A stretch of DNA of 22,967 nt. Origin: a virus (taxonomy: Duplodnaviria; Heunggongvirae; Uroviricota; Caudoviricetes). This document shows positions 1-14,255 of the stretch, in pieces (the stretch's first letter is position 1; each line of letters opens with the position of its first letter). Made by a program: the position numbers and the translations under genes. The stretch lies in IMG/VR virus record IMGVR_UViG_2687453563_000005. One strand, 5' to 3'. The notes beneath the pieces were generated by a model that was not told the origin of the DNA, made no database searches, and saw only the letters and a list, made by a program, of their open reading frames with translations.

Positions 1-753
1 TTAGATTCCCTGGTGAGTAAGAATTTTACTTTCTGAACTCCTCTGAGAGTATTGACTTGGAGAAACACCAAAATAACGTCTAAATACATAAGTAAAGTAT
101 GAGACACTGGCATAACCACAGACCTTAGCTACTTTACTAATAGGATAACAACGAGTGCTGAGTAAATATTCAGCCATTTGCATCCTCTCATCAAGTAGGA
201 TCTTACTGAATGATACCCCCTCTTCTTTCAATTTCCTCTTTAGTAAACTTTCGCTGAGATATAATCTTGATGATATATCCTTAAGATGCCATGGTGCAGA
301 TAAATCCGTATGAATAATCGTTTTAACTTTAGCCCCTGTGCTTTTCAAACATCCAAACAGAAATACTCCAAATTGTTTTTCAGAAGAAAATGCAGAGAGA
401 CATGTAAAAGCAATAGACTCATCAAAAATTTCTATATATTCAGCACAGTGATTAGCCCAACTAATTAATCCTTTAATTAAACTGAAGTCAGCAAAGTTTA
501 TTTTTAAATAAGATGGATATTCCCTACAATCAGAAATATCCCTTAAGTTATTAGCTTTCAAATAGCGACTAATAAACTCAGCGCCAAAATCCGCCACTAT
601 CACTCTTTCAGGATATGTCAGGAAAAAATCTCTATAGCTAGAGTCGACAAGTACAGATAAACCTCTATCCAGAAACACACTCTCTTTTCCGAAATAAACA
701 TCAAAGGACTCCAAAATCAATATAACTGAACATGTAGTTGCCATATCATCCAC
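1..753 (-). CDS. AraC-family transcriptional regulator, AppY/GadX-like, complete 250 aa; AT-rich gene
   Basis: C-terminal AraC-type HTH region (WHLKDIS...SESLLKRKLKEEGVSFSKILLDERMQMAEYLL...SYFTYVFRRYFGVSPSQY) resembles prophage/virulence AraC regulators such as AppY; TAA stop at 1..3; visibly AT-rich. Confidence 0.8.
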   Translation of the reverse strand: MDDMATTCSVILILESFDVYFGKESVFLDRGLSVLVDSSYRDFFLTYPERVIVADFGAEFISRYLKANNLRDISDCREYPSYLKINFADFSLIKGLISWANHCAEYIEIFDESIAFTCLSAFSSEKQFGVFLFGCLKSTGAKVKTIIHTDLSAPWHLKDISSRLYLSESLLKRKLKEEGVSFSKILLDERMQMAEYLLSTRCYPISKVAKVCGYASVSYFTYVFRRYFGVSPSQYSQRSSESKILTHQGI

Positions 754-1186: not shown

Positions 1187-1690
1187 TTATTGATAGTGTT
1201 TTATGTTCAGATAATGCCCGATGACTTTGTCATGCAGCTCCACCAATTTTGAGAACGACAGCGACTTCCGTCCCAGCCGTGCCAGGTGCTGCCTCAGATT
1301 CAGGTTATGCCGCTCAATTCGCTGCGTATATCGTTTGCTGATTACGTGCAGCTTTCCCTTCAGGCGGGATTCATACAGCGGCCAGCCATCCGTCATCCAT
1401 ATCACCACGTCAAAGGGTGACAGCAGGCTCATAAGACGCCCCAGCGTCGCCATCGTGCGTTCACCGAATACGTGCGCAACAACCGTCTTCCGGAGACTGT
1501 CATACGCGTAAAACAGCCAGCGCTGGCGCGATTTAGCCCCGACATAGCCCCACTGTTCGTCCATTTCCGCGCAGACGATGACGTCACTGCCCGGCTGTAT
1601 GCGCGAGGTTACCGACTGCGGCCTGAGTTTTTTAAGTGACGTAAAATCGTGTTGAGGCCAACGCCCATAATGCGGGCAGTTGCCCGGCAT
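1187..1690 (-). CDS. insB: IS1 InsB frame (made as InsAB' fusion by -1 frameshift)
   Basis: 167 aa translation ...[61 protein letters not shown]... is IS1 InsB; overlaps insA as expected. Confidence 0.85.
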
Positions 1691-1884
1691 CCAACGCCAT
1701 TCATGGCCATATCAATGATTTTCTGGTGCGTACCGGGTTGAGAAGCGGTGTAAGTGAACTGCAGTTGCCATGTTTTACGGCAGTGAGAGCAGAGATAGCG
1801 CTGATGTCCGGCGGTGCTTTTGCCGTTACGCACCACCCCGTCAGTAGCTGAACAGGAGGGACAGCTGATAGAAACAGAAGCCAC
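1609..1884 (-). CDS. insA: IS1 InsA (transposition inhibitor / N-terminal part of InsAB' transposase)
   Basis: 91 aa translation [43 protein letters not shown]... is the InsA zinc-finger/HTH protein. Confidence 0.9.
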
Positions 1885-2103
1885 TGGAGCACCTCAAAAA
1901 CACCATCATACACTAAATCAGTAAGTTGGCAGCATCACCAGATTTTCGCTCGAAACCTTCCTGTCAGATCCATAGCGAATCAAGTGCTGAATGTCACAGT
2001 ATCGAACAGAAAACAGTGACGATCTAACCCTTCAAGAATATTCTACGATTGTTCTGTTTAGGAAAAGCAAGGCGGGAAGTCGGGAGATAAGTCATTGATA
2101 AAG

Positions 2104-2169
2104 TGGCGGAGAGAGGGGGATTTGCCCCCCCGGTAGAGTTGCCCCTACTCCGGTTTTCGAGACCGGTCC
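2104..2169 (-). other. Degenerate 3' fragment (~66 nt) of a tRNA-Ser (serU-like) gene; probable att-site relic, not a functional tRNA
   Basis: Reverse complement reads ggaccggtctcgaaaaccggagtaggggcaactctaccgggggggcaaatccccctctctccgcca: anticodon-stem to CCA end of a long-variable-arm tRNA-Ser, but the T-loop TTCAAAT is changed to GGCAAAT and the 5' part is absent. Confidence 0.5.
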
Positions 2170-2303
2170 AATCATCAAACGAAACATAAAATTAGCTCAC
2201 ATTATGAGGAAAAGTATCTTTTATGTACTATGTAAATTCAAAGGCTTAGCCTCATTTCTCCGATGGTTTTCTCAACACTACTGGTTGTGAGCCCTTGCAA
2301 TGA

Positions 2304-3122
<819 letters not shown>

Positions 3123-3141
3123 GTCTTTAAGTGATAAGCAT

Positions 3142-3189
3142 AAACCGCAGCACGTCATGCATACGTCGTGTCTGCGGTTTTTCTTTTTT
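3142..3189 (+). terminator. Rho-independent terminator-like hairpin after the GIY-YIG gene
   Basis: aaaccgcagcacg...cgtgtctgcggttt imperfect stem followed by tttttctttttt. Confidence 0.5.
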
Positions 3190-3374
3190 GCTTACACGGT
3201 GTCTGGTTCTTCTGGCCACTCAATATCAGGTGCAGTTGATGTATCAACACGGTTCAGCAACACCCGATACTTTTTCCATGCGGCCAGTAACGCTTTCTCT
3301 TCCTCCGTTGCGATTTCCAGCTCAACAACAGTCTGAACGTACCGGGAACAGCCTCCTTCAGAGCTTGAAGGATA

Positions 3375-6300
3375 TCAATGTTCGCTTCCTGTTAACTGCC
3401 CGACAAGTGCAACCAGTTCGCTTACCTGATTTTCCAGAGTGGTGATCCGGGTGCCTGCTGTTGCCAGATTTTGACGTAGCGTTGTGTTTTCCTCTTCCAG
3501 CGCGGTAACGCGATCATCTGTTTCACGGGCGACCTGAACAAGTAAGCCCGTCACGGCGGCGTAGTCAACATTCAGATAACGCGTTTCTTCACGTAATTCA
3601 TTGCCGTCAACCGTTGGTCCCTGCAACTCTTTACCGTAATGAGTGAATGAGCCTACCGCTTCCGGTATTGCCTCCATTGCTTCCTGTGCAATAACACCAG
3701 CGTAAGGCAGTCCGTTTTCCTTAAGTGTGTAGGTGTACCCGTTCATTTTACGGATAGCTTCGGTTGCGTCACTGATAATCTGAATATTGTCTTTCAGCTC
3801 GCGGTCTGATAACTGATTCAGTGTTGTACAGTTAATAGCACCGTTTACATCAAACAGCTGACCTGACGATGTTTTTTGAGCATAAAACAGATACGCGGCA
3901 GTCGTTCCAACCTCAAAAACGTTTTGTCGATCACCTGAACCCCACACCTTGACAGCAAATGGTAGTTCTGTATTACCTAAGTTCTGTAAAACAAAACGAT
4001 TGCCAGTCCCTGTTTGTTTTGTAAGGGTTAAATCAACAGTTGAGTTAACCTCATCCTTGTTGATAGTGAGCGCCTGCGCTGTAGCCCCGTTAACAGCACC
4101 TGTTTTGAGTTGAACCGCGCCGTCATTACCATTTAGCAGTATCTCAGCTCCGCTAAAGAAATTTTTTAGCGATAGCATCTTACTTACGCCGACTGATGAA
4201 CCCAACGCCCACGCGAGAGAATTACCGGTGCTATCAAACCCACGTACAAAGCAATCCATTTTGCTATAGTCTGACGTGCTTCCAAGGACATCAATCCGCC
4301 CTCCGCCAGATTTTATCGGGTTAGATGTGGTTAATGACCTGACAGCAATATCGGTAGATGAATTGAGATCGTCTACTGTTAGTAATTTCTTCCATTCCTG
4401 CGTCGTTCCATTTTCAATTGTTCTTCCCCAAAAACCGGAATTGCGGCCTCCGAACTGCACAGCATAATTTTTACTAAATTGAACATGAATGCCGCCAAGA
4501 ACCATAGAGCCTGCCGGGCCGTTTGTACTGCCTGCAATTGATCTAAATTTGTCGACGTTATCAGTATGCTGAGCGTTCCAGTCATGACCTGTTAATGTTG
4601 CAATTCCTGAGTTAGCTGTAATTAACCCAGACGCTTTAAGATTCTGCACATCAATTCTGTCGTTTGCGAAATTATATGCAATTGCGTTACTAACGCTTCC
4701 GGCATCATCATAATCGCGTTTCTGAATAAACCAGTCGCCAGCATTAGCAATGAGAGTATAAGTAGGCGTGTTAGCCGGGCGATCTGTTTCATTAAATCTT
4801 ATTGCTGGGTTAGCGCTCCTTATTTGTAAAGGTTTTTCAACCGTTGATTTCAGTATCGCACTATCTACAATTAAATTACCTTCTGAATTAAGGTTTAGAT
4901 ATTTTGAAGCACCAGTTGAACCATCGTATGTAAACCTTATTGTTAATTGACCTGGCTCATTTGATAAAGTTTCAACATACATATCAGCACCAAGACGCAC
5001 AGTGCTGTCAGTTGCTAACAGTCTTGTATGGAGAATTCCACTAGATGTGTATGTATTGGTCGAATCACTATATCTATCAAGAAATAGACTGTTAAGTTGA
5101 GGGCTGTTGTTCCTACCTAAGCCAAGATTCGTTCTGGCACCATCAACAGTTGCCGCATTAGTGCCTCCTTGTCCAATAGGTAATGGAACCCATGACGATC
5201 CGTTATGGCAACCCCACAATCCAGATGTTGACACCTGAAGTCGTGGCGCTGATGGTGAGTAATTCGAATAAACGTAAGTAGTCGATTCGCCTTCTTCAAT
5301 TCTTTCTGTTAATACTATTTTTTTCCATACACTCCAACCTTGTGTGCTGGTATATATCCTTCTATAAAGAATTGATGAATTGTTATATACAAAATAGCTC
5401 TGGATACAACCATCACTACCATTAGCACCAGTTCTTTGCACTAACAATGCACCAGCAAGCTGTATCGGGTAATTTAGTTCTGGCTTTGCGTTGGCAGACA
5501 TTGGTTGGTAATAAAAACCGGCTGTAGTACCTTTTATATCGTTTAAGTTCGTATTCGCATCAAGGCCAGTTTTTGCTTCAAACATGACTTCAAGTTTAGA
5601 GCGCGCTGTACTTGCATCATTCGCCCCTGTGCCACCTTGCGCAACTGCGAGCGGTTGCCATCTACCAGCTTTAGGGTTAAATGCGCCCCACTGACCGTCA
5701 GCATCAACCTGTAAGTAACAGCCGTCCGCCTGAACGTCAGTAGATAAAATGATGGTTCTTGTGTCGCTTGAACGCTGAAATCGGATAACCTCATCTTTTC
5801 TTGCGTGGCGTGTCCATTGCGGGCCTATTGTCGGATTCCAGCGATAAGTATAAAGCGAGCGCGTAGCCCATCCCTGAAATACACCTGTATACGCTGGTGT
5901 TCCATCTACCTGACTAATAAACCCCGTAAGACTGCTTTCACCGGATGCAATCGATGGAAATCCTTTTGCATTACTCATAATGCGCATAAATCCGATATAC
6001 CCTGATGGGTTGCCGGAAATATCAGGACAATCACGCGGGGCTGAGCCAAGACCGATATTATCGCCAACAATTAATTGCGCCTGGTTGCGATAATTAAGTG
6101 CGTCCGCCGCAGATTTCGCCGCGTTTGTTTCACTGGATTTAGCATTAGTTTCGCTGGCTTTAGCGTTTGTTTCGCTGCTCTTTGCTGCTGCCTCGCTATT
6201 TTTCGCGTTGGTTTCTGATTTTTTGGCTGCTGTCGCGGAGTTTGCCGATGCAGTTTGTGAGTCTGCTGCCGCCTGTGCGCTGTTACCCGCAATATAAAGG

Positions 6301-7142: not shown

Positions 7143-8069
7143 TCAGCGACCAATCACCACAACCTGACCACCGTCCCCTTCGTCTGCCGTGCTGATCTCC
7201 TGAGAAACCACGCGAGACCCCACGCGCATTTCCCCGTACAGAACAGGCAGAACATTGCCCTGGGCAACCATGTTATCCAGTGAGGAGAAATAGGTGTTCT
7301 GCTTACCGTTATCCGTTGTCTGTGTACGGGGAGTTCTGGCTTTCGGTGCCAGCATCTGCGCCACACCACCGAGCACCATACTGGCACCGAGAGAAAACAG
7401 GATGCCGGTCATACCACCGGTCCCAATGGCTGCCCCCCATGCTGCAAGGGTGGCTCCGGCGGTAAAGAATGATCCGGCAATGGCGGCAGCCCCCAGGACA
7501 ATCTGGAATACGCCACCTGACTTGGCCCCGGCGACTCTGGGAACAATATGAATCACAGCGCCATCAGGCAGAGTCTCATGTAACTGCGCCGTTAATATGT
7601 GCTGTTTGAGTTGACTTTCTTTTGCCGCATAGCCGTCACTTTTGCCGCGATATGGCCCCTGGTAATGTTCAGCAAACAGAACGCGTTCTGTTGCGGGAAA
7701 ATATGCGCGCAGACTTTCTTTATTACACCCGTTCCATCGTCCGGACGGCTTCGCCCAGATAATATGGTTAAGAACGTTGAAACGTTCACGCATCATGATC
7801 TCGATATCAGATGCGAGGCGATGTCCACAGAACAGGTAAAGGCTTCCGGCAGGTTTCAGCACCCGCCAGAACTGAGCCAGACAGTGGTCCAGCCACTTCA
7901 GGTAATCTTCGTCCCCTTTCCACTGATTGTCCCAGCCGTTGGGTTTCACCTTGAAGTACGGCGGATCGGTAACAATCAGGTCAATGGAATCATCAGGCAG
8001 GGACTGAATAAAATGCAGGCAATCAGCGTTGATTAAATCAACACTGTTTATTTTTACAGTATTTTTCAT
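7143..8069 (-). pseudogene. In-frame chimera: N-terminal fragment of a DNA N6A/N4C methyltransferase (~160 aa, DPPY motif) fused to C-terminal ~145 aa of lambda-like tail assembly protein I; junction near 7590
   Basis: N-part has IVTDPPYF and post-motif-IV region but no downstream FxGxG SAM motif; C-part TAQLHETLPDGAVIHIVPRVAGAKSGGVFQIVLGAAAIAG...VVVIGR matches lambda gpI C-terminus as recalled; lies immediately upstream of the J-like gene as I does in lambda. Confidence 0.65.
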
Positions 8070-8218
8070 GGATCAGTAAGCGTAACTCTGGTAGGCTCAC
8101 TCTGCTTTTGCGCTAAAGCAGTGGGCCGTGGTTCGCTTGTGACCAGTAAGCATGAGCGAATGGCTGGCAGGTGCTACCAACACCCACCAGCCGCCCATTT
8201 TCACAAATTAAAAGCCCT

Positions 8219-8413
8219 TCATTGCTGAAGGCGTCTGTAACAGCCGAACTGGTAATCTGCCAGCCCCGCCATAACCAACTGGGTCAGTATTAACTGACAG
8301 CGTTCGCGTGAAAGGTATGTGTTTTGTGCAATCTCCCCGACTGTTGCCGGTTCGATGCTTAATTCATTAAAAACAACTTTCGCCGTTTCTGTCATATCTT
8401 GCTGTTTTAGCAT
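8219..8413 (-). CDS. Small hypothetical protein (64 aa), possible winged-helix fold; divergent from KAP NTPase gene
   Basis: ORF only; no recognisable motif; could also be a remnant of a deleted late gene. Confidence 0.3.
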   Translation of the reverse strand: MLKQQDMTETAKVVFNELSIEPATVGEIAQNTYLSRERCQLILTQLVMAGLADYQFGCYRRLQQ

Positions 8414-8536
8414 GTCTTTTTACCTTCATGGTTAACATGACATACCAATAACTCTTGTCTAAAAAGCCAGCAAGATAAAAAATCAGTATTCACTACCACC
8501 AGCGTGTTTACCGTACTGCACCAGGTTTACAGGTAC

Positions 8537-8562
8537 AAAAAAACCCGCTCGACAGCGGGTTT
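8537..8562 (-). terminator. Hairpin with 7-nt U-run on the minus-strand transcript
   Basis: aaaaaaacccgctcgacagcgggttt: 6-bp GC stem, 4-nt loop, A7 on plus strand giving U7 on minus strand. Confidence 0.4.
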
Positions 8563-8685
8563 AAGCTGTGTGGCGAAGTAACCACTCTTAACAGATTACA
8601 AGAATTTTTGCGGACCGCGTTAATGATTTTTAATCCCAAAGTCGTATTATTCGTTTTTTACTGTAGGAGTTAATAGGTTTATATT

Positions 8686-10017
8686 ATGTTAGATACACTA
8701 TCTTTCACTGAACGTGACGAGTTCCAACGAAGAAACATCGCTGAAAATATCATCAAGTTGCTAAAACCAGAGGCAGACATTTCACCACTGGTAATAGACG
8801 GCGCATGGGGAACAGGGAAAACAGAATTTAGTATCAAACTGAAAAATCTCATTATTGAGCAAGAAACTGAATCTAAAGTTGTTTATATTGATGCCTTTAA
8901 AGGGGATCATGCAGAATCTCCATTACTTCTCATAACCTCTGCAATTGCCAGCATTTTGCCTGAGGAAGAAAAACAACACTTCATTAAGAGATCTCTTCCT
9001 GCAATTCGCTTTGGTTTAAAAACGGTACTAAAAGCTGGTGCAGGTTGGTTTTTACGACAGGAGGCTAGTGAAGTTGCCGAAGAATTCCAAGATGCGATGA
9101 AGAAAGCAAGCAATGCAGCAATAGATGGGACTATTGAAAATTTGCTTGAAGACCATATGGACTCAGAGAAAAACATAAATTCACTTAAATCCTGCATCGA
9201 AAGCATATCAAAAAATCAAAAAATCGTAATTATAATTGATGAATTAGACCGATGTAAGCCGAGTTTTTCAACAAATGTCATTGAAACAATAAAACACATT
9301 TTTGACATCAATAATGTCTTTTTTATTTTAGTTACAAACACAGAACAATTAAAAGCATCTATAAATCATATTTATGGTTATAGCATTAACTCACAAAAGT
9401 ATCTTGACAAGTTTATAAAATATACCATCACGCTTCCAGATACATGTTTGATAAATGGTCACAACGTATGTAAAGCCTCTGTTATATATTGGGATTACCT
9501 TGTAGAAAAAACAAGGTTATTGAATAAAATCAATAGATTATCAGGTTACTTTATCCGTGATTTAATTCAACGAACCAACTTATCATTACGTGAAACACAA
9601 ACATTTTCACGCAATCTTAACATTTTCCAACTGTTAAACGACGATGAGAACAAAAGCAGTGATCCTTTAATAAATATGATCTTTGTCGTAGCTGCCTTCA
9701 TACATTGCTTTGGTAACAAGGAAAAACTAAAACAAGAAATTACCGCTGAATCTATATCTTATTTAGCAGACCTGCTTAACATAAAAGAAATACCTTATTC
9801 TTATGAGAGAAGATCGCAAATCCCTGAAATATCGATTGTATTCTTCGGAATAATTAAAGACAGTATTACTCTTAATGAGCGATTTGCCCCTAAAAGTGAT
9901 GAAGAACTTAAAAAATTCACAAATGTTTATACTGATTATGAACACATAAATTTTTGGAGTACTACACCCAGAGAGTTATTGATAAAATATATTAATCAAA
10001 TGTCATTCATCCAGTAA
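8686..10017 (+). CDS. KAP-family P-loop NTPase (443 aa), AT-rich, apparently soluble
   Basis: Walker A GAWGTGKT near residue 40; Walker B-like VIIIDELDRC near residue 185; composition far more AT-rich than flanking phage genes; opposite strand to the Q operon. Confidence 0.8.
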   Translation: MLDTLSFTERDEFQRRNIAENIIKLLKPEADISPLVIDGAWGTGKTEFSIKLKNLIIEQETESKVVYIDAFKGDHAESPLLLITSAIASILPEEEKQHFIKRSLPAIRFGLKTVLKAGAGWFLRQEASEVAEEFQDAMKKASNAAIDGTIENLLEDHMDSEKNINSLKSCIESISKNQKIVIIIDELDRCKPSFSTNVIETIKHIFDINNVFFILVTNTEQLKASINHIYGYSINSQKYLDKFIKYTITLPDTCLINGHNVCKASVIYWDYLVEKTRLLNKINRLSGYFIRDLIQRTNLSLRETQTFSRNLNIFQLLNDDENKSSDPLINMIFVVAAFIHCFGNKEKLKQEITAESISYLADLLNIKEIPYSYERRSQIPEISIVFFGIIKDSITLNERFAPKSDEELKKFTNVYTDYEHINFWSTTPRELLIKYINQMSFIQ

Positions 10018-10047
10018 ATAATACGCCCCATGCAGGGGCGTATTATT
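10016..10047. terminator. Bidirectional rho-independent terminator shared by KAP gene and Q (overlaps Q stop codon)
   Basis: aaataatacgcccc-atgca-ggggcgtattatt: 13-bp perfect inverted repeat with 5-nt loop, A/T-rich on both sides. Confidence 0.6.
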
Positions 10048-10414
10048 AAACGTCCAAATCTAATGTTAGATCTAGCATGGAAAGGCAGCCATCAATAAAT
10101 CCTTCGGCTAGCTGTATTTCTATACGTATCAATTTCTCATCTTTTTTACGAGCCTTGGCGAGCTTTCTTTTAGAGATACCGTATAGGTAATGGGCAACAA
10201 GAAGCGAATGTTCGTCCGGCCTTTTTTGCTTTAGATGAGCAAGACAACCTTCAATAATTAAGGCATCACTATCCGAACAAGCCAAGCGTTTCTTGCTTGT
10301 ATAGGGAAGAAGTCCCTTAAACCCAGCGGCTATAGGTGAATAATCAACGCCTGAACTATCACTCGCCGCCCATGCCCCCCAACGCTCCAGAACCATCTGA
10401 ATATCACGCATCAA
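10046..10414 (-). CDS. Late-gene antitermination protein Q (phage 82/21-type Q family, 122 aa)
   Basis: MMRDIQMVLERWGAWAA...SPIAAGFKGLLP... resembles QuuD-type antiterminators as recalled; last gene of the cro-to-Q operon. Confidence 0.75.
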   Translation of the reverse strand: MMRDIQMVLERWGAWAASDSSGVDYSPIAAGFKGLLPYTSKKRLACSDSDALIIEGCLAHLKQKRPDEHSLLVAHYLYGISKRKLAKARKKDEKLIRIEIQLAEGFIDGCLSMLDLTLDLDV

Positions 10415-10428
10415 CTTTCTCCACCAAA

Positions 10429-11424
10429 TCAGGCTAGCACACCAATTGCCAACACACGGTCGATAAAACGAAATATCAGCTCCAGCTGGGAGCCATACTT
10501 CTCTTCAAATGCCACGGTATCCGCATGCAGCTCGTCGTGATGCTTTCTGCACAAAGGCAACACAAAGAGGTCATGCGCTTTTGTACTCATTCCCCCCTGA
10601 CCGTGGCCTATCAGGTGGTGGGGATCATCAGCAGGCTTTCCACAACATGCACACGGCTGTGTCTTAACCCAGCGCGTGTACTTTTCATTAACCCAGCGGC
10701 GACGTTTGGGGCGTAACATAAAAGACTCCGGCGACTCCGGTTCCACTTTCAGCGCCAGCACCTTTTTCGCTTTATCCTGCATGATGCTGGTGGCTGGAAC
10801 CGAAGGCACAAGGTCACTTTCCCGGGTGACAGACGGCACAACAGGCTTCGGTAATCTCAGTGCCTTACGGGCTGCGCTTTCCGGTAAGGCATCCGCCAGA
10901 TCATTACGAACCAGCCACCAGCACAGTTCCGGCATTGTCACAACGTGACTATCATCAAAACCGAGATCCCGACGCACAACAGACAACACCCAGCGGGCAC
11001 AGTTATCCGTTGCCATTGATTCCAGCCGTTCCGTGAACTGATCGCGCAGTTGGTTATCGCAGTGCCAGCACAGACGGATTGCGCCAGGCGCGTGTCGCAT
11101 TGTGGTCATGTTCTCGCTGTGCCAGTTGGAATGAGGCCACTGGCAGCCTTTTTCACGAAGTAACCAGCTTTCAAGACATTCCACGCCACCAGCACGACGG
11201 ATCACTGCCTCATTGCGGAACACGGCCCGAACGGCAGGATCATCCGCCAGCGGTTGTGATGCCGCCGGAACGGCACCACTGGCGAAAGATGAATAACGTT
11301 CCGGCTCAGGCTCCAGCAGTACACGCCCCTGCATAAACAGGGGCATCAACTCTGAACCTGGCCTGAACAATACGATCCCCATACGCGGGGCAATTTCAGG
11401 GGTCAGTAGTGCTCTCACGGTCAC
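10429..11424 (-). CDS. Phage protein with C-terminal HNH/zinc-finger-like motif (DUF968/NinG-like), 331 aa; GTG start as drawn, true start uncertain
   Basis: C-terminal CACCGKPADDPHHLIGHGQGGMSTKAHDLFVLPLCRKHHDELH has Cys/His spacing typical of HNH-type modules; nin-region position. Confidence 0.55.
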   Translation of the reverse strand: MTVRALLTPEIAPRMGIVLFRPGSELMPLFMQGRVLLEPEPERYSSFASGAVPAASQPLADDPAVRAVFRNEAVIRRAGGVECLESWLLREKGCQWPHSNWHSENMTTMRHAPGAIRLCWHCDNQLRDQFTERLESMATDNCARWVLSVVRRDLGFDDSHVVTMPELCWWLVRNDLADALPESAARKALRLPKPVVPSVTRESDLVPSVPATSIMQDKAKKVLALKVEPESPESFMLRPKRRRWVNEKYTRWVKTQPCACCGKPADDPHHLIGHGQGGMSTKAHDLFVLPLCRKHHDELHADTVAFEEKYGSQLELIFRFIDRVLAIGVLA

Positions 11425-11425
11425 C

Positions 11426-12235
11426 TCAATGAACGGTATCGAGCAGCTTTAACAGCTCAGGGAATCGGGATTCGAAGAAATGCGGCTGCGTCTCGCGCGG
11501 ATTTGCAGGACTGGTGATGTTCTTGCCGAACATGCAGCCTTTCGCCGTCAGCGACCAGAATTTTTTGATGTTGTTAATCGCTGTACGGCTGTATCGTTCG
11601 CGCTGTTCGACGATCCCCAGCTTCGCCATCTGGTGATATGCCTGATTAGCCGTAAGGCGGATACCATACTGTTTCAGCAGTGCACTCAGCGACAGTGTCG
11701 GGCGACTTGAGCCATCAGGCGCGTCAGCAGGAGCATCAATGGCATAGCGCGGTGCCAGATTCGGTAAGCCAACAGCCTCCTGGAGTTTCTGACAGGCCCC
11801 AAGCACTGAAGAGTTAGACAGGTTTAACTCCCTGCGCATAAAGTCCAGCAGAATCACGCCAGCCTGCATCTTGTCAGCAGCCTGCCCGGATAATTTTTCC
11901 GGTGCGCTGGTTACCATATCGAAAGTACGGATCACCTTCAGATGGAATGACGGGCTGATCCACATTGCATAGGCATACACCAGTTCTTTGCAGACATACG
12001 TCCCCTGGTTATTTCCGCCATTAATGACGCTAACTGGTTGATTTTGTTCCAGAGGCGGAATTCCACCCTCGGTGAAAAGTTGTTCAATCAATTCACAGGT
12101 TTGCTTATTGGAGAGCCAGTATTTCGGGCGGTTTTTTTGTTCTCCCCCGGCTGCCCTGTGCAGATCGTTCAGGCTGTAACGCCCATAAGCATCACGACGA
12201 ACTTCAATACCATCAATGACCATCAGATTATTCAT
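11426..12235 (-). CDS. KilA-N domain protein (antirepressor-like), ~269 aa
   Basis: MNNLMVIDGIEVRRDAYGRYSLNDLHRAAGG...PKYWLSNKQTCELIEQL fits KilA-N; GAGGAG Shine-Dalgarno 9 nt upstream of the ATG at 12235 (the ORF-track start at 12268 overlaps rusA). Confidence 0.7.
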   Translation of the reverse strand: MNNLMVIDGIEVRRDAYGRYSLNDLHRAAGGEQKNRPKYWLSNKQTCELIEQLFTEGGIPPLEQNQPVSVINGGNNQGTYVCKELVYAYAMWISPSFHLKVIRTFDMVTSAPEKLSGQAADKMQAGVILLDFMRRELNLSNSSVLGACQKLQEAVGLPNLAPRYAIDAPADAPDGSSRPTLSLSALLKQYGIRLTANQAYHQMAKLGIVEQRERYSRTAINNIKKFWSLTAKGCMFGKNITSPANPRETQPHFFESRFPELLKLLDTVH

Positions 12236-12254
12236 ACTTCGTTTCTCCTCTTGA

Positions 12255-12644
12255 TCAGGCGGCTGCACCCGCCGTTTTCTCGTACTTACTGATAGTGATC
12301 TCGACCTTCCCTTCCGGGATAACCGGTCCCCACTCCACCAGCATTCTTTTCACCTGGCTGTCGTCTTCCCACACACCCGCGTGGGTCAGGGCGTCAAACA
12401 GCGCCTTGTTATAGTTGTCCAGATCGCGGATCCGGTTATCCGGAGGAAACAACACGATCTCCACTGAAGCAGGTGCCGACGTTGGTTTCGGCAGACGACG
12501 TAACTGCTCAACTATTGCTGTGCACGCCGCACTTTGGAATTTTCGCCCCGCCGCGCTTATCAGGCTCTTACCAGCAAATGCCCCTTTGTTGGGGTGTCGC
12601 CAGTAGGTGTTCACGCTGGGTGGAAAAGGCAGAATCAGCTTCAT
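12255..12644 (-). CDS. rusA: RusA-family Holliday junction resolvase (129 aa)
   Basis: LPFPPSVNTYWRH, RDLDNYNKALFDALTHAGVWEDDSQV match RusA signature; ATGA start/stop overlap with upstream gene. Confidence 0.85.
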   Translation of the reverse strand: MKLILPFPPSVNTYWRHPNKGAFAGKSLISAAGRKFQSAACTAIVEQLRRLPKPTSAPASVEIVLFPPDNRIRDLDNYNKALFDALTHAGVWEDDSQVKRMLVEWGPVIPEGKVEITISKYEKTAGAAA

Positions 12645-12967
12645 ACTTTCAGCCCCCTCTCATGTAACCAGTGGGCTGCACGCAGCCTTGCGTTTTCCTC
12701 ACCGGCAAGCAGTGAGCGGATAATCCCGACCGCCTCGCTGTCGTCGTCCTTCACCGCGGTATGAAGCGTGATCCCCCGGGCCACACCACGCTTTATCGTG
12801 ATGACGCCTTTTTTCTCCAGTGCGCGAAGATGCTCCACCGCTGCATTCACCGAACGGTATCCCAGCATGGTTGCCACCTCCTGATTGGTTGGCGGGAAGC
12901 CGCGTTCTTTCTGATAAGAAATCAGCATATCCAGCACCTGCTGCTGGCATTGAGTTAACGTCGTCAT
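12641..12967 (-). CDS. LexA N-terminal DNA-binding-domain homologue lacking the S24 peptidase domain (108 aa)
   Basis: MTTLTQCQQQVLDMLISYQKERGFPPTNQEVATMLGYRSVNAAVEHLRALEKKGVITIKRGVARGITL aligns along the LexA winged-helix domain; no Ser/Lys protease region follows. Confidence 0.7.
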   Translation of the reverse strand: MTTLTQCQQQVLDMLISYQKERGFPPTNQEVATMLGYRSVNAAVEHLRALEKKGVITIKRGVARGITLHTAVKDDDSEAVGIIRSLLAGEENARLRAAHWLHERGLKV

Positions 12968-13617
12968 GCCGCCATCTCCCTGACCAGTTTTTCTGCCTGC
13001 TGGCGAATCTGCGCCAGAAAGGCCTCACCACATGCCTCAAGTTCATCGCGCCCGATGTAGCTGATTGCCGGTCCCTTCCAGGTCTTGTCGAAAACAGCAA
13101 TAGCACCAGCGAAGAAAGCGCCTGTCGGCACCTGCTTCTCATCCTTCGGGATAAACCAGGCAGGCAGTTCAAAACCAATACGCCCGCGAATAAAAGCAAT
13201 ATGATCTACATCTTCCGGCCACCACACTTCGCTGGTGGCAGCTTTGATCAGGAAAACATAGCGCCCGCCTTTATCACGCATGGCACTGGCATGCTTCATG
13301 ATGTAACGCATGCCGGTGATGTATTGCCCCTCATGCTGACTGGCGCGGCTGTATGGGGGATTACCAAAGGCAGCACCTTTAAGCTCCGCAAGGCGTTCTG
13401 ACCAGTCATGCGCCAGCGCGTTGTCTTCCGCCGTGTAATACGCAGCACATTTGGCGTTATCACCGTCAGTGAACAGATCCAGAACAAACGGGCCAAACAG
13501 GGTGTTAATTCCCCAGAAAATGTTGTCCGGCGTGCGCCACTGATCGCCCACTTCCTTCAGTTCATGGGCTGGTTTGTTCCGCAGTTCCACCAGCGCCTGG
13601 CAATATTTATTACTCAT
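12964..13617 (-). CDS. Phage orphan DNA N6-adenine methyltransferase (Dam-like), ~217 aa
   Basis: FGNPPYS motif IV and overall phage Dam-family resemblance; start ATG at 13615..13617 overlaps upstream stop; no adjacent restriction gene. Confidence 0.8.
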   Translation of the reverse strand: MSNKYCQALVELRNKPAHELKEVGDQWRTPDNIFWGINTLFGPFVLDLFTDGDNAKCAAYYTAEDNALAHDWSERLAELKGAAFGNPPYSRASQHEGQYITGMRYIMKHASAMRDKGGRYVFLIKAATSEVWWPEDVDHIAFIRGRIGFELPAWFIPKDEKQVPTGAFFAGAIAVFDKTWKGPAISYIGRDELEACGEAFLAQIRQQAEKLVREMAA

Positions 13618-13907
13618 TAAGCCCCCACGTAATTCCCTGAGAGATACCACTCTTCACCTGATGCAGCCCGCTTACCCTGGCGACGCGCCTTACGCGTTAA
13701 CCAGCCTTCTGCTTCCAGCCGTGCGATAGCCGTTCTGACGGTACTCATCCCCGCGCCAATCTGACGGGCAATGGTTTCAATTGATGGCCAGCACACACCT
13801 TCGTCATTACTGAAATCAGCCAGGCGGGCCATAATTGCCACGCTGGATAACTTCATGCCTGATGCAGCGCAACCATCCCATACATAGCCGGTTAATTTAG
13901 TGCTCAT
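13617..13907 (-). CDS. Small winged-helix DNA-binding protein (96 aa), possibly replication- or regulation-related
   Basis: SIETIARQIGAGMSTVRTAIARLEAEGWL HTH-like segment; function not assignable from sequence alone. Confidence 0.5.
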   Translation of the reverse strand: MSTKLTGYVWDGCAASGMKLSSVAIMARLADFSNDEGVCWPSIETIARQIGAGMSTVRTAIARLEAEGWLTRKARRQGKRAASGEEWYLSGNYVGA

Positions 13908-13916
13908 GACCGACCT

Positions 13917-14255
13917 CTATTTCCCTGAATTTACGACGAAACTGTTCGAGCGGGCTGAAGCACTCATGCTCATAGCCTTCGCGGAGGTAGATAACCCGTT
14001 GTGTTTCCGGTTCCCAACGAATGACTCTGACGGGCACTCCGTAGTGATCTTTGAACCAGCGGTTAACTTGTCGCAAAGGACTGTCTCCTTCTGCCGGTTG
14101 AAATCACCCACAGCCCACTCTGCAAAGCTGTGGGTTACAATTTCCCTGTCACCTGGTACATTTACTGCATAGCAATACTCCACCTTCGCTTTTCCACCCG
14201 GTACAGGAAGCGCAATCAGTTGCGAGCGACGGTAGTGTGTTGTTAAACTGTTCAT
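13917..14255 (-). CDS. Hypothetical protein (112 aa), translationally coupled to upstream gene
   Basis: ATG at 14253..14255 overlaps the upstream TGA (ATGA); no motif recognised; contains an 8-bp inverted repeat cccacagc/gctgtggg at about 14110..14137. Confidence 0.4.

Follow-up and report, generated by a model that had tools for sequence, protein, structure and literature searches.

A compact KAP-family NTPase gene carried as cargo in Q21-type lambdoid prophages, where it lies between antiterminator gene Q and the putative late promoter, a candidate for single-gene anti-phage defence

The KAP family of P-loop NTPases was predicted in 2004 to have an immune role, and its mechanism is to this day not well understood. 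Here we analysed one member of the family, encoded in a stretch of 22,967 nucleotides of viral DNA (IMG/VR record IMGVR_UViG_2687453563_000005, Caudoviricetes; this whole stretch is hereafter called the window), which proved to be 100% identical to the chromosome of Escherichia coli YD786 in sequence comparison. The stand-alone coding sequence, predicted from the list of open reading frames (ORFs) and supported by Pfam and PADLOC, lies at positions 8686..10017 of the plus strand and specifies a protein of 443 amino acids (aa), named 'KAP family NTPase' in RefSeq (WP_001542658.1). An annotation of the gene and its listing among defence candidates existed before; what is added here is the anatomy of the slot that it occupies as cargo and its recurrent contexts in mobile elements. 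Taking all evidence together, we regard the gene as horizontally acquired prophage cargo for a compact soluble NTPase of the PDC-S20 type, situated in a slot of Q21-type lambdoid prophages and most likely expressed in the lysogen as a single-gene anti-phage defence, a reading that we hold to be probable but still some way from secure.

The closest described system is PDC-S20. The PDC families are 145 candidate defence systems, put forward explicitly as untested and drawn from genes that lie inside BREX, DISARM and type I restriction-modification (RM) systems (Payne et al. 2024, bioRxiv 10.1101/2024.01.29.577857). The window protein agrees with PDC-S20 in being a KAP NTPase of about 450 aa encoded by a single gene, and matches the PADLOC profile PDLC04956 over its full length (4.5e-177, 588 bits; residues 3-442 on profile positions 4-449 of 450), while three more PDC-S20 profiles also match (7.8e-52 to 3.2e-29). 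As in a single-gene system, no conserved partner gene accompanies it across its contexts. The difference resides in the setting, since PDC-S20 was defined from such embedded genes, whereas the window gene is prophage cargo between Q and the putative late promoter PR', a context of PDC-S20 of which the main text and the searched supplements of Payne et al. give no description. Neither PDC-S20 nor WP_001542658 was found mentioned in the literature searched, and the DefensePredictor paper does not mention KAP.

PifA of the F plasmid, which excludes phage T7, is likewise a KAP NTPase without transmembrane helices, borne by a mobile element and with a proposed anti-phage role; only for PifA are triggers (T7 gp1.2 and gp10) and a membrane-leak phenotype known. 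PifA differs, however, in its length of about 720-740 aa, which includes a long C-terminal region, and its NTPase domain alone aligns with the window protein, the PADLOC profile of PifA being matched at positions 13-255 of 720 only (6.3e-18, 62.7 bits). RdrA of RADAR (PDB 8fnt, 8fnu and 8hr8) is about 800-850 aa long, works together with the RdrB deaminase and shares only 12-15% identity with the window protein; its profile gave no match at E <= 1, and RdrB is absent beside the window gene. QatA is a KAP-type NTPase with weak profile similarity near Walker B (PADLOC 7.8e-12), but it is about 600 aa long and requires QatBCD; the QatA equivalog model (NCBIfam NF041923) has a cut-off of 600 but gave 34.4 bits, and the window gene is flanked by Q and an Orf47 homologue, with no QatBCD. 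Two protective systems come close by description. 'Reve', a single-gene KAP plus AAA_22 system of P4-like satellites that protects E. coli (bioRxiv 10.64898/2026.02.27.708500), shares with the window protein, by description and not by sequence, the Pfam pair PF07693 and PF13401, ORC-like fold matches and the nature of mobile-element cargo in Enterobacteria. KAP NTPase proteins also protect Enterococcus in a Walker-B-dependent manner (EF_KAP, PMC12632615), and EF_KAP is, again by description, a single protein with a KAP P-loop domain for which protection was demonstrated by experiment, but it carries two N-terminal transmembrane helices and a C-terminal effector region of 322 aa, both of which the window protein lacks.

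The window protein matched Pfam KAP_NTPase (PF07693) with 9.4e-71 and 238.9 bits against a cut-off of 20, its residues 15-317 covering positions 1-292 of the 293 in the profile. Both parts of the Walker signature of the family (GxxGxGK[ST] and hhhhDE/DLDR) were found, Walker A as GAWGTGKT at residues 39-46 (8800-8823) and Walker B as VIIIDELDR at residues 181-189 (9226-9252). Between them lies a conserved insert (residues 77-177, 8914-9216), and the protein ends with a hypervariable helical domain (residues 318-443, 9637-10014). In an alignment of 49 homologues, 57 positions are invariant, including the Walker motifs (G39, G42, G44, K45 and D185-R189), Q221, H228 and R302/R309, with N218 nearly so; the conservation amounts to about 0.7 for the core, 0.66 for the insert and 0.35 for the C-terminal domain, and for distant relatives the alignment mostly ends near residue 345. 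Transmembrane helices are carried in or beside the NTPase domain by all eukaryotic and some bacterial KAP members. The window protein has none that can be recognised, the maximum of the 19-residue Kyte-Doolittle score being 1.53, below the usual threshold, and at most 0.99 within the insert at residues 73-123; on the hydropathy and the AlphaFold2 (AF2) model, a transmembrane form was rejected. The helices are not an obligatory feature of the family, and since PifA likewise lacks them, their lack does not exclude KAP membership. A search of PDB with the protein sequence gave no match at E <= 1, and therefore a fold search was used instead. The AF2 model (pLDDT 81.7, pTM 0.76, poor at residues 113-154 within the conserved insert) found its closest solved folds in RdrA of RADAR and also in BrxC, both defence ATPases, while the DNA-bound assembly ATPases ORC/Cdc6, DnaA and TnsC are structural neighbours as well. 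The initial annotation, made from the letters alone, had thus rightly recognised a soluble KAP-family protein of 443 aa with both Walker motifs and had been right to treat it as a candidate for single-gene defence.

The cargo status of the gene was established by comparison with phage 1720a-02, which carries no KAP gene and of which Q is 72% identical to that of the window. By blastn, positions 8002-8631 of the window correspond to 2402-3033 of the 1720a-02 locus (L003), and 10086-10500 to 3088-3502; between these collinear flanks, the window holds 1,454 bp (GC 0.331) where the phage has 54 bp. Besides the KAP gene and the 54 bp of upstream DNA that belong to it, the cassette so delimited (about 8632..10085) contains a hairpin between the stop codons and the last 13 or so codons of Q. 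Homology to the loci with other cargo stops at 8629-8640 on the left side, and homology to the Q genes without KAP is lost over the last 22-29 nt. The GC content of the KAP ORF is 0.330 (0.284 at third codon positions), with a profile minimum of 0.275 inside the gene, against 0.54 for the early region (10429..14000). Q itself (122 aa; 10046..10414, minus strand; Pfam Phage_antitermQ PF06530, 3.1e-52) belongs to the Q21/Q933W family, as named in bioRxiv 10.1101/651190. The KAP-linked Q alleles have a C-terminus 5 aa shorter than Q of 1720a-02: those of E. coli, Citrobacter and Cronobacter end with ...LD(L/M)D-x, whereas Q of 1720a-02 goes on with DWLLKK (10046..10085), and the junction of the cassette lies therefore within the last codons of Q.

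The convergent stop codons of KAP and Q are separated by 28 bp, which are filled by a hairpin with a perfect 13-bp stem, a perfect inverted repeat at 10017..10047 (-20.8 kcal/mol with z -6.2 on one strand, -21.5 kcal/mol with z -5.8 on the other). Compensatory changes have preserved this stem in Citrobacter (ATGCCCC/GGGGCAT) as well as in Cronobacter (GGGCCC/GGGCCC). As its T-runs are weak, we infer its probable function as a bidirectional terminator or insulator. In the alleles of 96% identity the hairpin is inverted, with the loop ATGCA in the window and TGCAT in strains 2009C-3133 and M7424, and opposite-strand blastn matches of 28-31 bp link 10017..10047 of the window to L005 (6332..6362) and L006 (6332..6359), a small palindrome flip.

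On the other side of the cassette lies a block (8563..8631, minus strand) of which position and conservation point to PR' together with Q-binding and pause elements. As candidate -35 it has TTAACG (8618-8613) and as candidate -10 TGTAAT (8595-8590), followed by the invariant TAAGAGTGGTTAC; the block also includes the invariant 15-mer CGCGGTCCGCAAAAA at 8605-8619, and it is conserved in all Q21-family loci examined, whether they carry KAP or not. When the leaders of seven loci were aligned (four E. coli KAP loci, phage 1720a-02, a Citrobacter prophage and a Cronobacter prophage), the shared block ...TTAACGCGGTCCGCAAAAATTCTTGTAATCTGTTAAGAGTGGTTACTTCGCCACACAGCT was present in all seven, and a terminator hairpin comes next in six of them, Cronobacter being the exception. 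In the window, the terminator scan identified this hairpin as a tR'-like intrinsic terminator at 8541..8562 of the minus strand (9-bp stem with 5 GC pairs followed by TTTTTTT; -22.2 kcal/mol), the counterpart of the 'putative rho-independent terminator' annotated between Q and orf47 in phage SfV. A Rfam scan of 8000..10500 gave nothing significant. The order described for the late leader is Q gene, PR', pause element and terminator (bioRxiv 10.1101/651190). Since by its position the shared block would be the late leader, the cassette lies in the space that separates Q's stop codon from the putative -35 region of PR', with KAP always on the strand opposite to Q; Q-dependent late transcription would start downstream of KAP and thus never cross the KAP gene. 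The convergence with Q, the AT-richness relative to the phage backbone and the separate acquisition of the gene, all stated in the initial annotation, were borne out by these comparisons; as for the hairpins said to bracket it, both exist, but that at 8541..8562 belongs to the minus-strand late leader and not to KAP.

Q genes of the same family were found in 423 genomes, and in the KAP-less loci sampled, the interval from Q to PR' was occupied by other cargo, always on the strand that KAP uses. EC21Z-078 and 98219 carry there a PDC-S42-like protein of 287-289 aa with a second protein of 140-143 aa; the O103:H2 locus carries the PDC-S42-like pair as judged from shared annotation and an identical second protein. 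MB19 and TUM12357 carry a DUF6731 protein with a 147-aa protein; strain 1283 an unannotated pair (313 and 149 aa) sized like the DUF6731 pair; KK05-19 a TIR-TM protein (PADLOC 1.7e-57); and ECSD228 a Clp-fold serine protease of the SDH family. In phage 1720a-02 the slot is empty. The alternative cargo lies at 1901..3455 (L030), 2052..3464 (L031), 1439..2978 (L032), 1554..2953 (L033), 1401..2955 (L034), 1568..2956 (L035), 2145..2960 (L036) and 1768..2763 (L037) of the respective loci. With five cargo types and one empty site between Q and PR' in the loci examined, the interval behaves like a hotspot in the sense used for P2 and P4 (Rousset et al. 2022). PADLOC recognises TIR-TM, PDC-S42 and PDC-S20 among the slot cargo, all as predictions. 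The slot from Q to PR' is not described in the Tai paper.

Among 5,426 complete E. coli genomes, 50 (0.9%) carry the KAP gene, in 53 copies that are all full-length matches with 95.5-100% identity. All five E. coli alleles that were translated are intact, and the ratio of nonsynonymous to synonymous substitution (dN/dS) between the alleles is 0.15-0.26 at dS up to 0.12, indicating that the gene is under purifying selection. The annotation was examined in five genomes besides YD786 (XH988, 2009C-3133, M7424, 90-1 and VTB97432v), and in all five KAP lies between Q and a complete holin-endolysin-spanin-HNH-terminase block. The family forms 269 clusters at 50% identity (E <= 1e-30), nearly all of 430-470 aa. 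Homologues in Citrobacter (65% identity), Enterobacter (50%) and Cronobacter (44%) hold the same position between Q and the late genes, in prophages of which the lysis and packaging modules differ. Further homologues (40-47% identity), from 186/P2-like prophages that E. coli, Yersinia and Serratia carry, are placed between a 186-type cI and int; as cI, KAP and int are all on one strand, these homologues would be co-oriented with the lysogeny genes. A homologue of Enterobacter hormaechei (46% identity) belongs to a small element composed of integrase, Toprim primase, AAA_25, KAP and Ash genes (L040/L041, 3662..7323). Three kinds of mobile element, the Q-slot prophages, the 186/P2-like prophages and this satellite-like element, thus carry KAP as cargo.

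Some neighbours of these homologues were also recorded. The satellite-like E. hormaechei element adjoins genes for an AAA/nSTAND3 protein and an S8 peptidase. In the 186-like prophages of Yersinia and Serratia, an ORF of 160-169 aa stands between cI and KAP (L017 7494..7976, plus strand; L027 6470..6970, plus strand), for which no Pfam family was found above threshold, with one weak BRCT match (0.0037); it could be a lineage-specific partner of KAP. The E. coli loci with the order cI, KAP and int are without this ORF, or have instead a 61-aa ORF annotated as YdcA.

As for the function, the KAP gene, given its placement outside late transcription, would rely on a promoter of its own and could be expressed in the lysogen, like its relatives between cI and int in 186/P2-like prophages. 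By this single gene, the lysogen would be defended against superinfecting phages. The NTPase engine, made of Walker A, Walker B and the insert 77-177, may operate as an ATP-dependent oligomeric switch, as in RdrA, and the C-terminal helical domain 318-443 may be the part for specificity or sensing. As the protein has no recognisable effector domain, its output would be a direct, ATP-driven action by which a phage component is sequestered or remodelled, or else a perturbation of ATP or membrane of the PifA type. Several points weigh against such a defence role. There is no recognisable effector domain from which a mode of action could be read, and the promoter scan found no confident KAP promoter, the number of matches being not above the shuffled expectation. 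The AT-rich KAP DNA may be silenced by H-NS. The gene is rare in E. coli, as described above, and the deposited phage genomes contain no close homologue, the best being one of 44.6% in a Salmonella contig. No experiment on the window protein or on PDC-S20 was found in the literature, and since the hotspot neighbours are mostly candidates themselves, the guilt by association is partly circular.

Upstream of KAP, the sole plus-strand match to the consensus promoter, TTTACT-17-TATATT at 8657-8685, has its -10 abutting the ATG, and was rejected as the KAP promoter because its position conflicts with the conserved N-terminus. The sequence CTGT-N8-ATAG at 8661..8676 (plus strand) differs at a single position from CTGT-N8-ACAG, the core of the LexA box; it overlaps the AGGAG 5' of the start codon, and may be there by chance.

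The serious competitor, which we consider less likely but well worth keeping in mind, is that the gene is a functional prophage accessory for a purpose other than defence, such as competition with plasmids or satellites, control of induction or maintenance, or another lysogenic-conversion trait exerted through an ATP-dependent assembly switch. Purifying selection and the recurrence in mobile elements show that the gene is useful to the element and not for what, the structural neighbours ORC/Cdc6, DnaA and TnsC would fit an assembly ATPase working on DNA, the lack of an effector domain suits such a role, and phage exclusion was argued not to be the primary function even of PifA, at least in the statement quoted in PMC12632615. 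On the other hand, the best profile is that of a defence-candidate family embedded in BREX, DISARM and RM systems, TIR-TM and PDC-S42-like cargo share the slot, RdrA and BrxC, to which the protein comes closest among solved folds, are ATPases of defence systems, and a hypervariable C-terminus is typical of immune sensors. It is improbable, to a much greater degree, that KAP is a passenger or decaying remnant without current function, kept by the fixation of a cryptic prophage in the chromosome. Aravind et al. in 2004 reportedly noted a tendency of prokaryotic KAP genes toward pseudogenes, and the host prophage is indeed defective, with IS1, a large deletion and pseudogenes; yet all five translated alleles are intact, all 53 E. 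coli copies are full-length, dN/dS is close to 0.2 where dS ranges up to 0.12, and a length of about 440 aa across 269 clusters is combined with 57 invariant residues in 49 sequences. That the protein is a component of a multi-gene KAP system (Qat or RADAR) or an orthologue of PifA can hardly be maintained: the domain-level PADLOC matches to QatA (7.8e-12) and PifA (6.3e-18) and the structural similarity to RdrA would speak for it, but they stand against 34 bits for QatA where 600 are demanded, a PifA match confined to 13-255 of 720 and the silence of the RdrA profile at E <= 1, in a protein about half as long as PifA, QatA or RdrA and with Q and late-operon genes, not QatBCD or RdrB, as neighbours.

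The initial annotation had further supposed that KAP replaced the late promoter and the lysis genes and formed a defence module with the divergent ORF at 8219..8413. The window alone would speak for this, as it holds no lysis genes and has the small ORF as the closest neighbour on the opposite strand, but the supposition is refuted by the comparative data and we give it next to no credence. The five other annotated KAP-bearing prophages keep their lysis and packaging genes, and in the window the late leader (8541..8631) is intact and followed by the first late genes, an Orf47 homologue and the 5' part of a methylase gene. The loss of late genes maps elsewhere, to a chimeric ORF (7143..8069, minus strand; Pfam N6_N4_Mtase and Lambda_tail_I), in which a DNA methyltransferase (SfV orf48-like; PADLOC MTase_II 7.7e-74) contributes its N-terminus as residues 1-157 and the remainder is the C-terminus of the lambda tail-assembly protein I, with an in-frame junction at about 7595/7596; RefSeq treats it as two pseudogene fragments. 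In four comparator loci the methylase homology ends at 7596 of the window, and this stop together with the fusion of methylase and tail protein I indicates that the late genes were lost by an independent deletion, which took what remained of the methylase gene together with all lysis and head genes and the majority of the tail genes. The undeleted form is found in VTB97432v, with Q, KAP, Orf47, a full methyltransferase of 350 aa, EssD, RrrD, a lysis protein and terminase. The supposed partner ORF (64 aa; 8219..8413, minus strand) shows 100% identity to Orf47 of SfV; this phage has no KAP gene, and its Orf47 comes after the post-Q terminator and before the methylase and lysis genes. It gave only weak TrmB and DprA_WH (winged-helix) matches, occurs in many KAP-less phages, and adjoins KAP in 8 of the 50 KAP-bearing genomes while being absent from the other 42 loci; the small ORF at its position in Citrobacter is unrelated. 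We therefore rejected it as a KAP partner; it is the first gene of the late operon, outside the KAP module.

Returning to the reading of KAP as a lysogen-expressed defence gene, we put forward a bolder extension, tentatively and as a possibility that is more likely wrong than right. The interval that runs from Q's stop codon to the -35 of PR' might be a previously undescribed, orientation-locked defence hotspot in which cargo is insulated from late transcription, and the 'mini-KAP' of about 440 aa might be a complete sensor-and-effector immune ATPase that dispenses with a separate effector domain, acts via the conserved insert 77-177, where other KAPs carry membrane helices, and takes its specificity from the hypervariable C-terminal bundle. 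If KAP protects lysogens, PDC-S20 would turn from an untested PADLOC candidate into a validated system, and the soluble 443-aa protein would be a minimal model for the mechanism of KAP NTPases. The comparative result on the slot may outweigh the gene itself in usefulness: as the interval behaves like the P2 and P4 hotspots, it could be used as bait for new defence systems of lambdoid prophages, for which the several cargo genes of no known function, among them the DUF6731 pairs and the SDH-type protease, would be candidates.

The YD786 prophage that the window covers is a defective lambdoid thrW prophage, inserted at tRNA-Thr beside proA. From right to left, the minus strand of the window carries the integrase and early genes, the CI/Cro region, replication and nin-type genes (RusA, KilA-N and DUF968) and Q; further left follow KAP on the opposite strand, the 64-aa ORF, the chimeric ORF, a J-type tail-tip gene, a tail-fibre remnant, a GIY-YIG gene and IS1. 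Its decay is evident from IS1, the large deletion and several pseudogenes. The GIY-YIG gene (2349..3122, plus strand; 257 aa, LEM-3-like in RefSeq) is a full-length match to PADLOC PD-T4-3 (7.6e-140), which Vassallo et al. in 2022 are said to have validated as a single-gene defence. With this match and KAP, the decayed prophage retains two defence-type cargo genes, while its lysis and head genes are lost. The PD-T4-3 gene is situated past the tail-fibre remnant and adjoins the IS1A copy (1187..1884), which also flanks the left end of the prophage remnant. At the same end stands a very AT-rich gene (GC about 0.33) for an AraC-family regulator (1..744), and directly outside the window, YD786 carries partial LysR and integrase-core pseudogenes.

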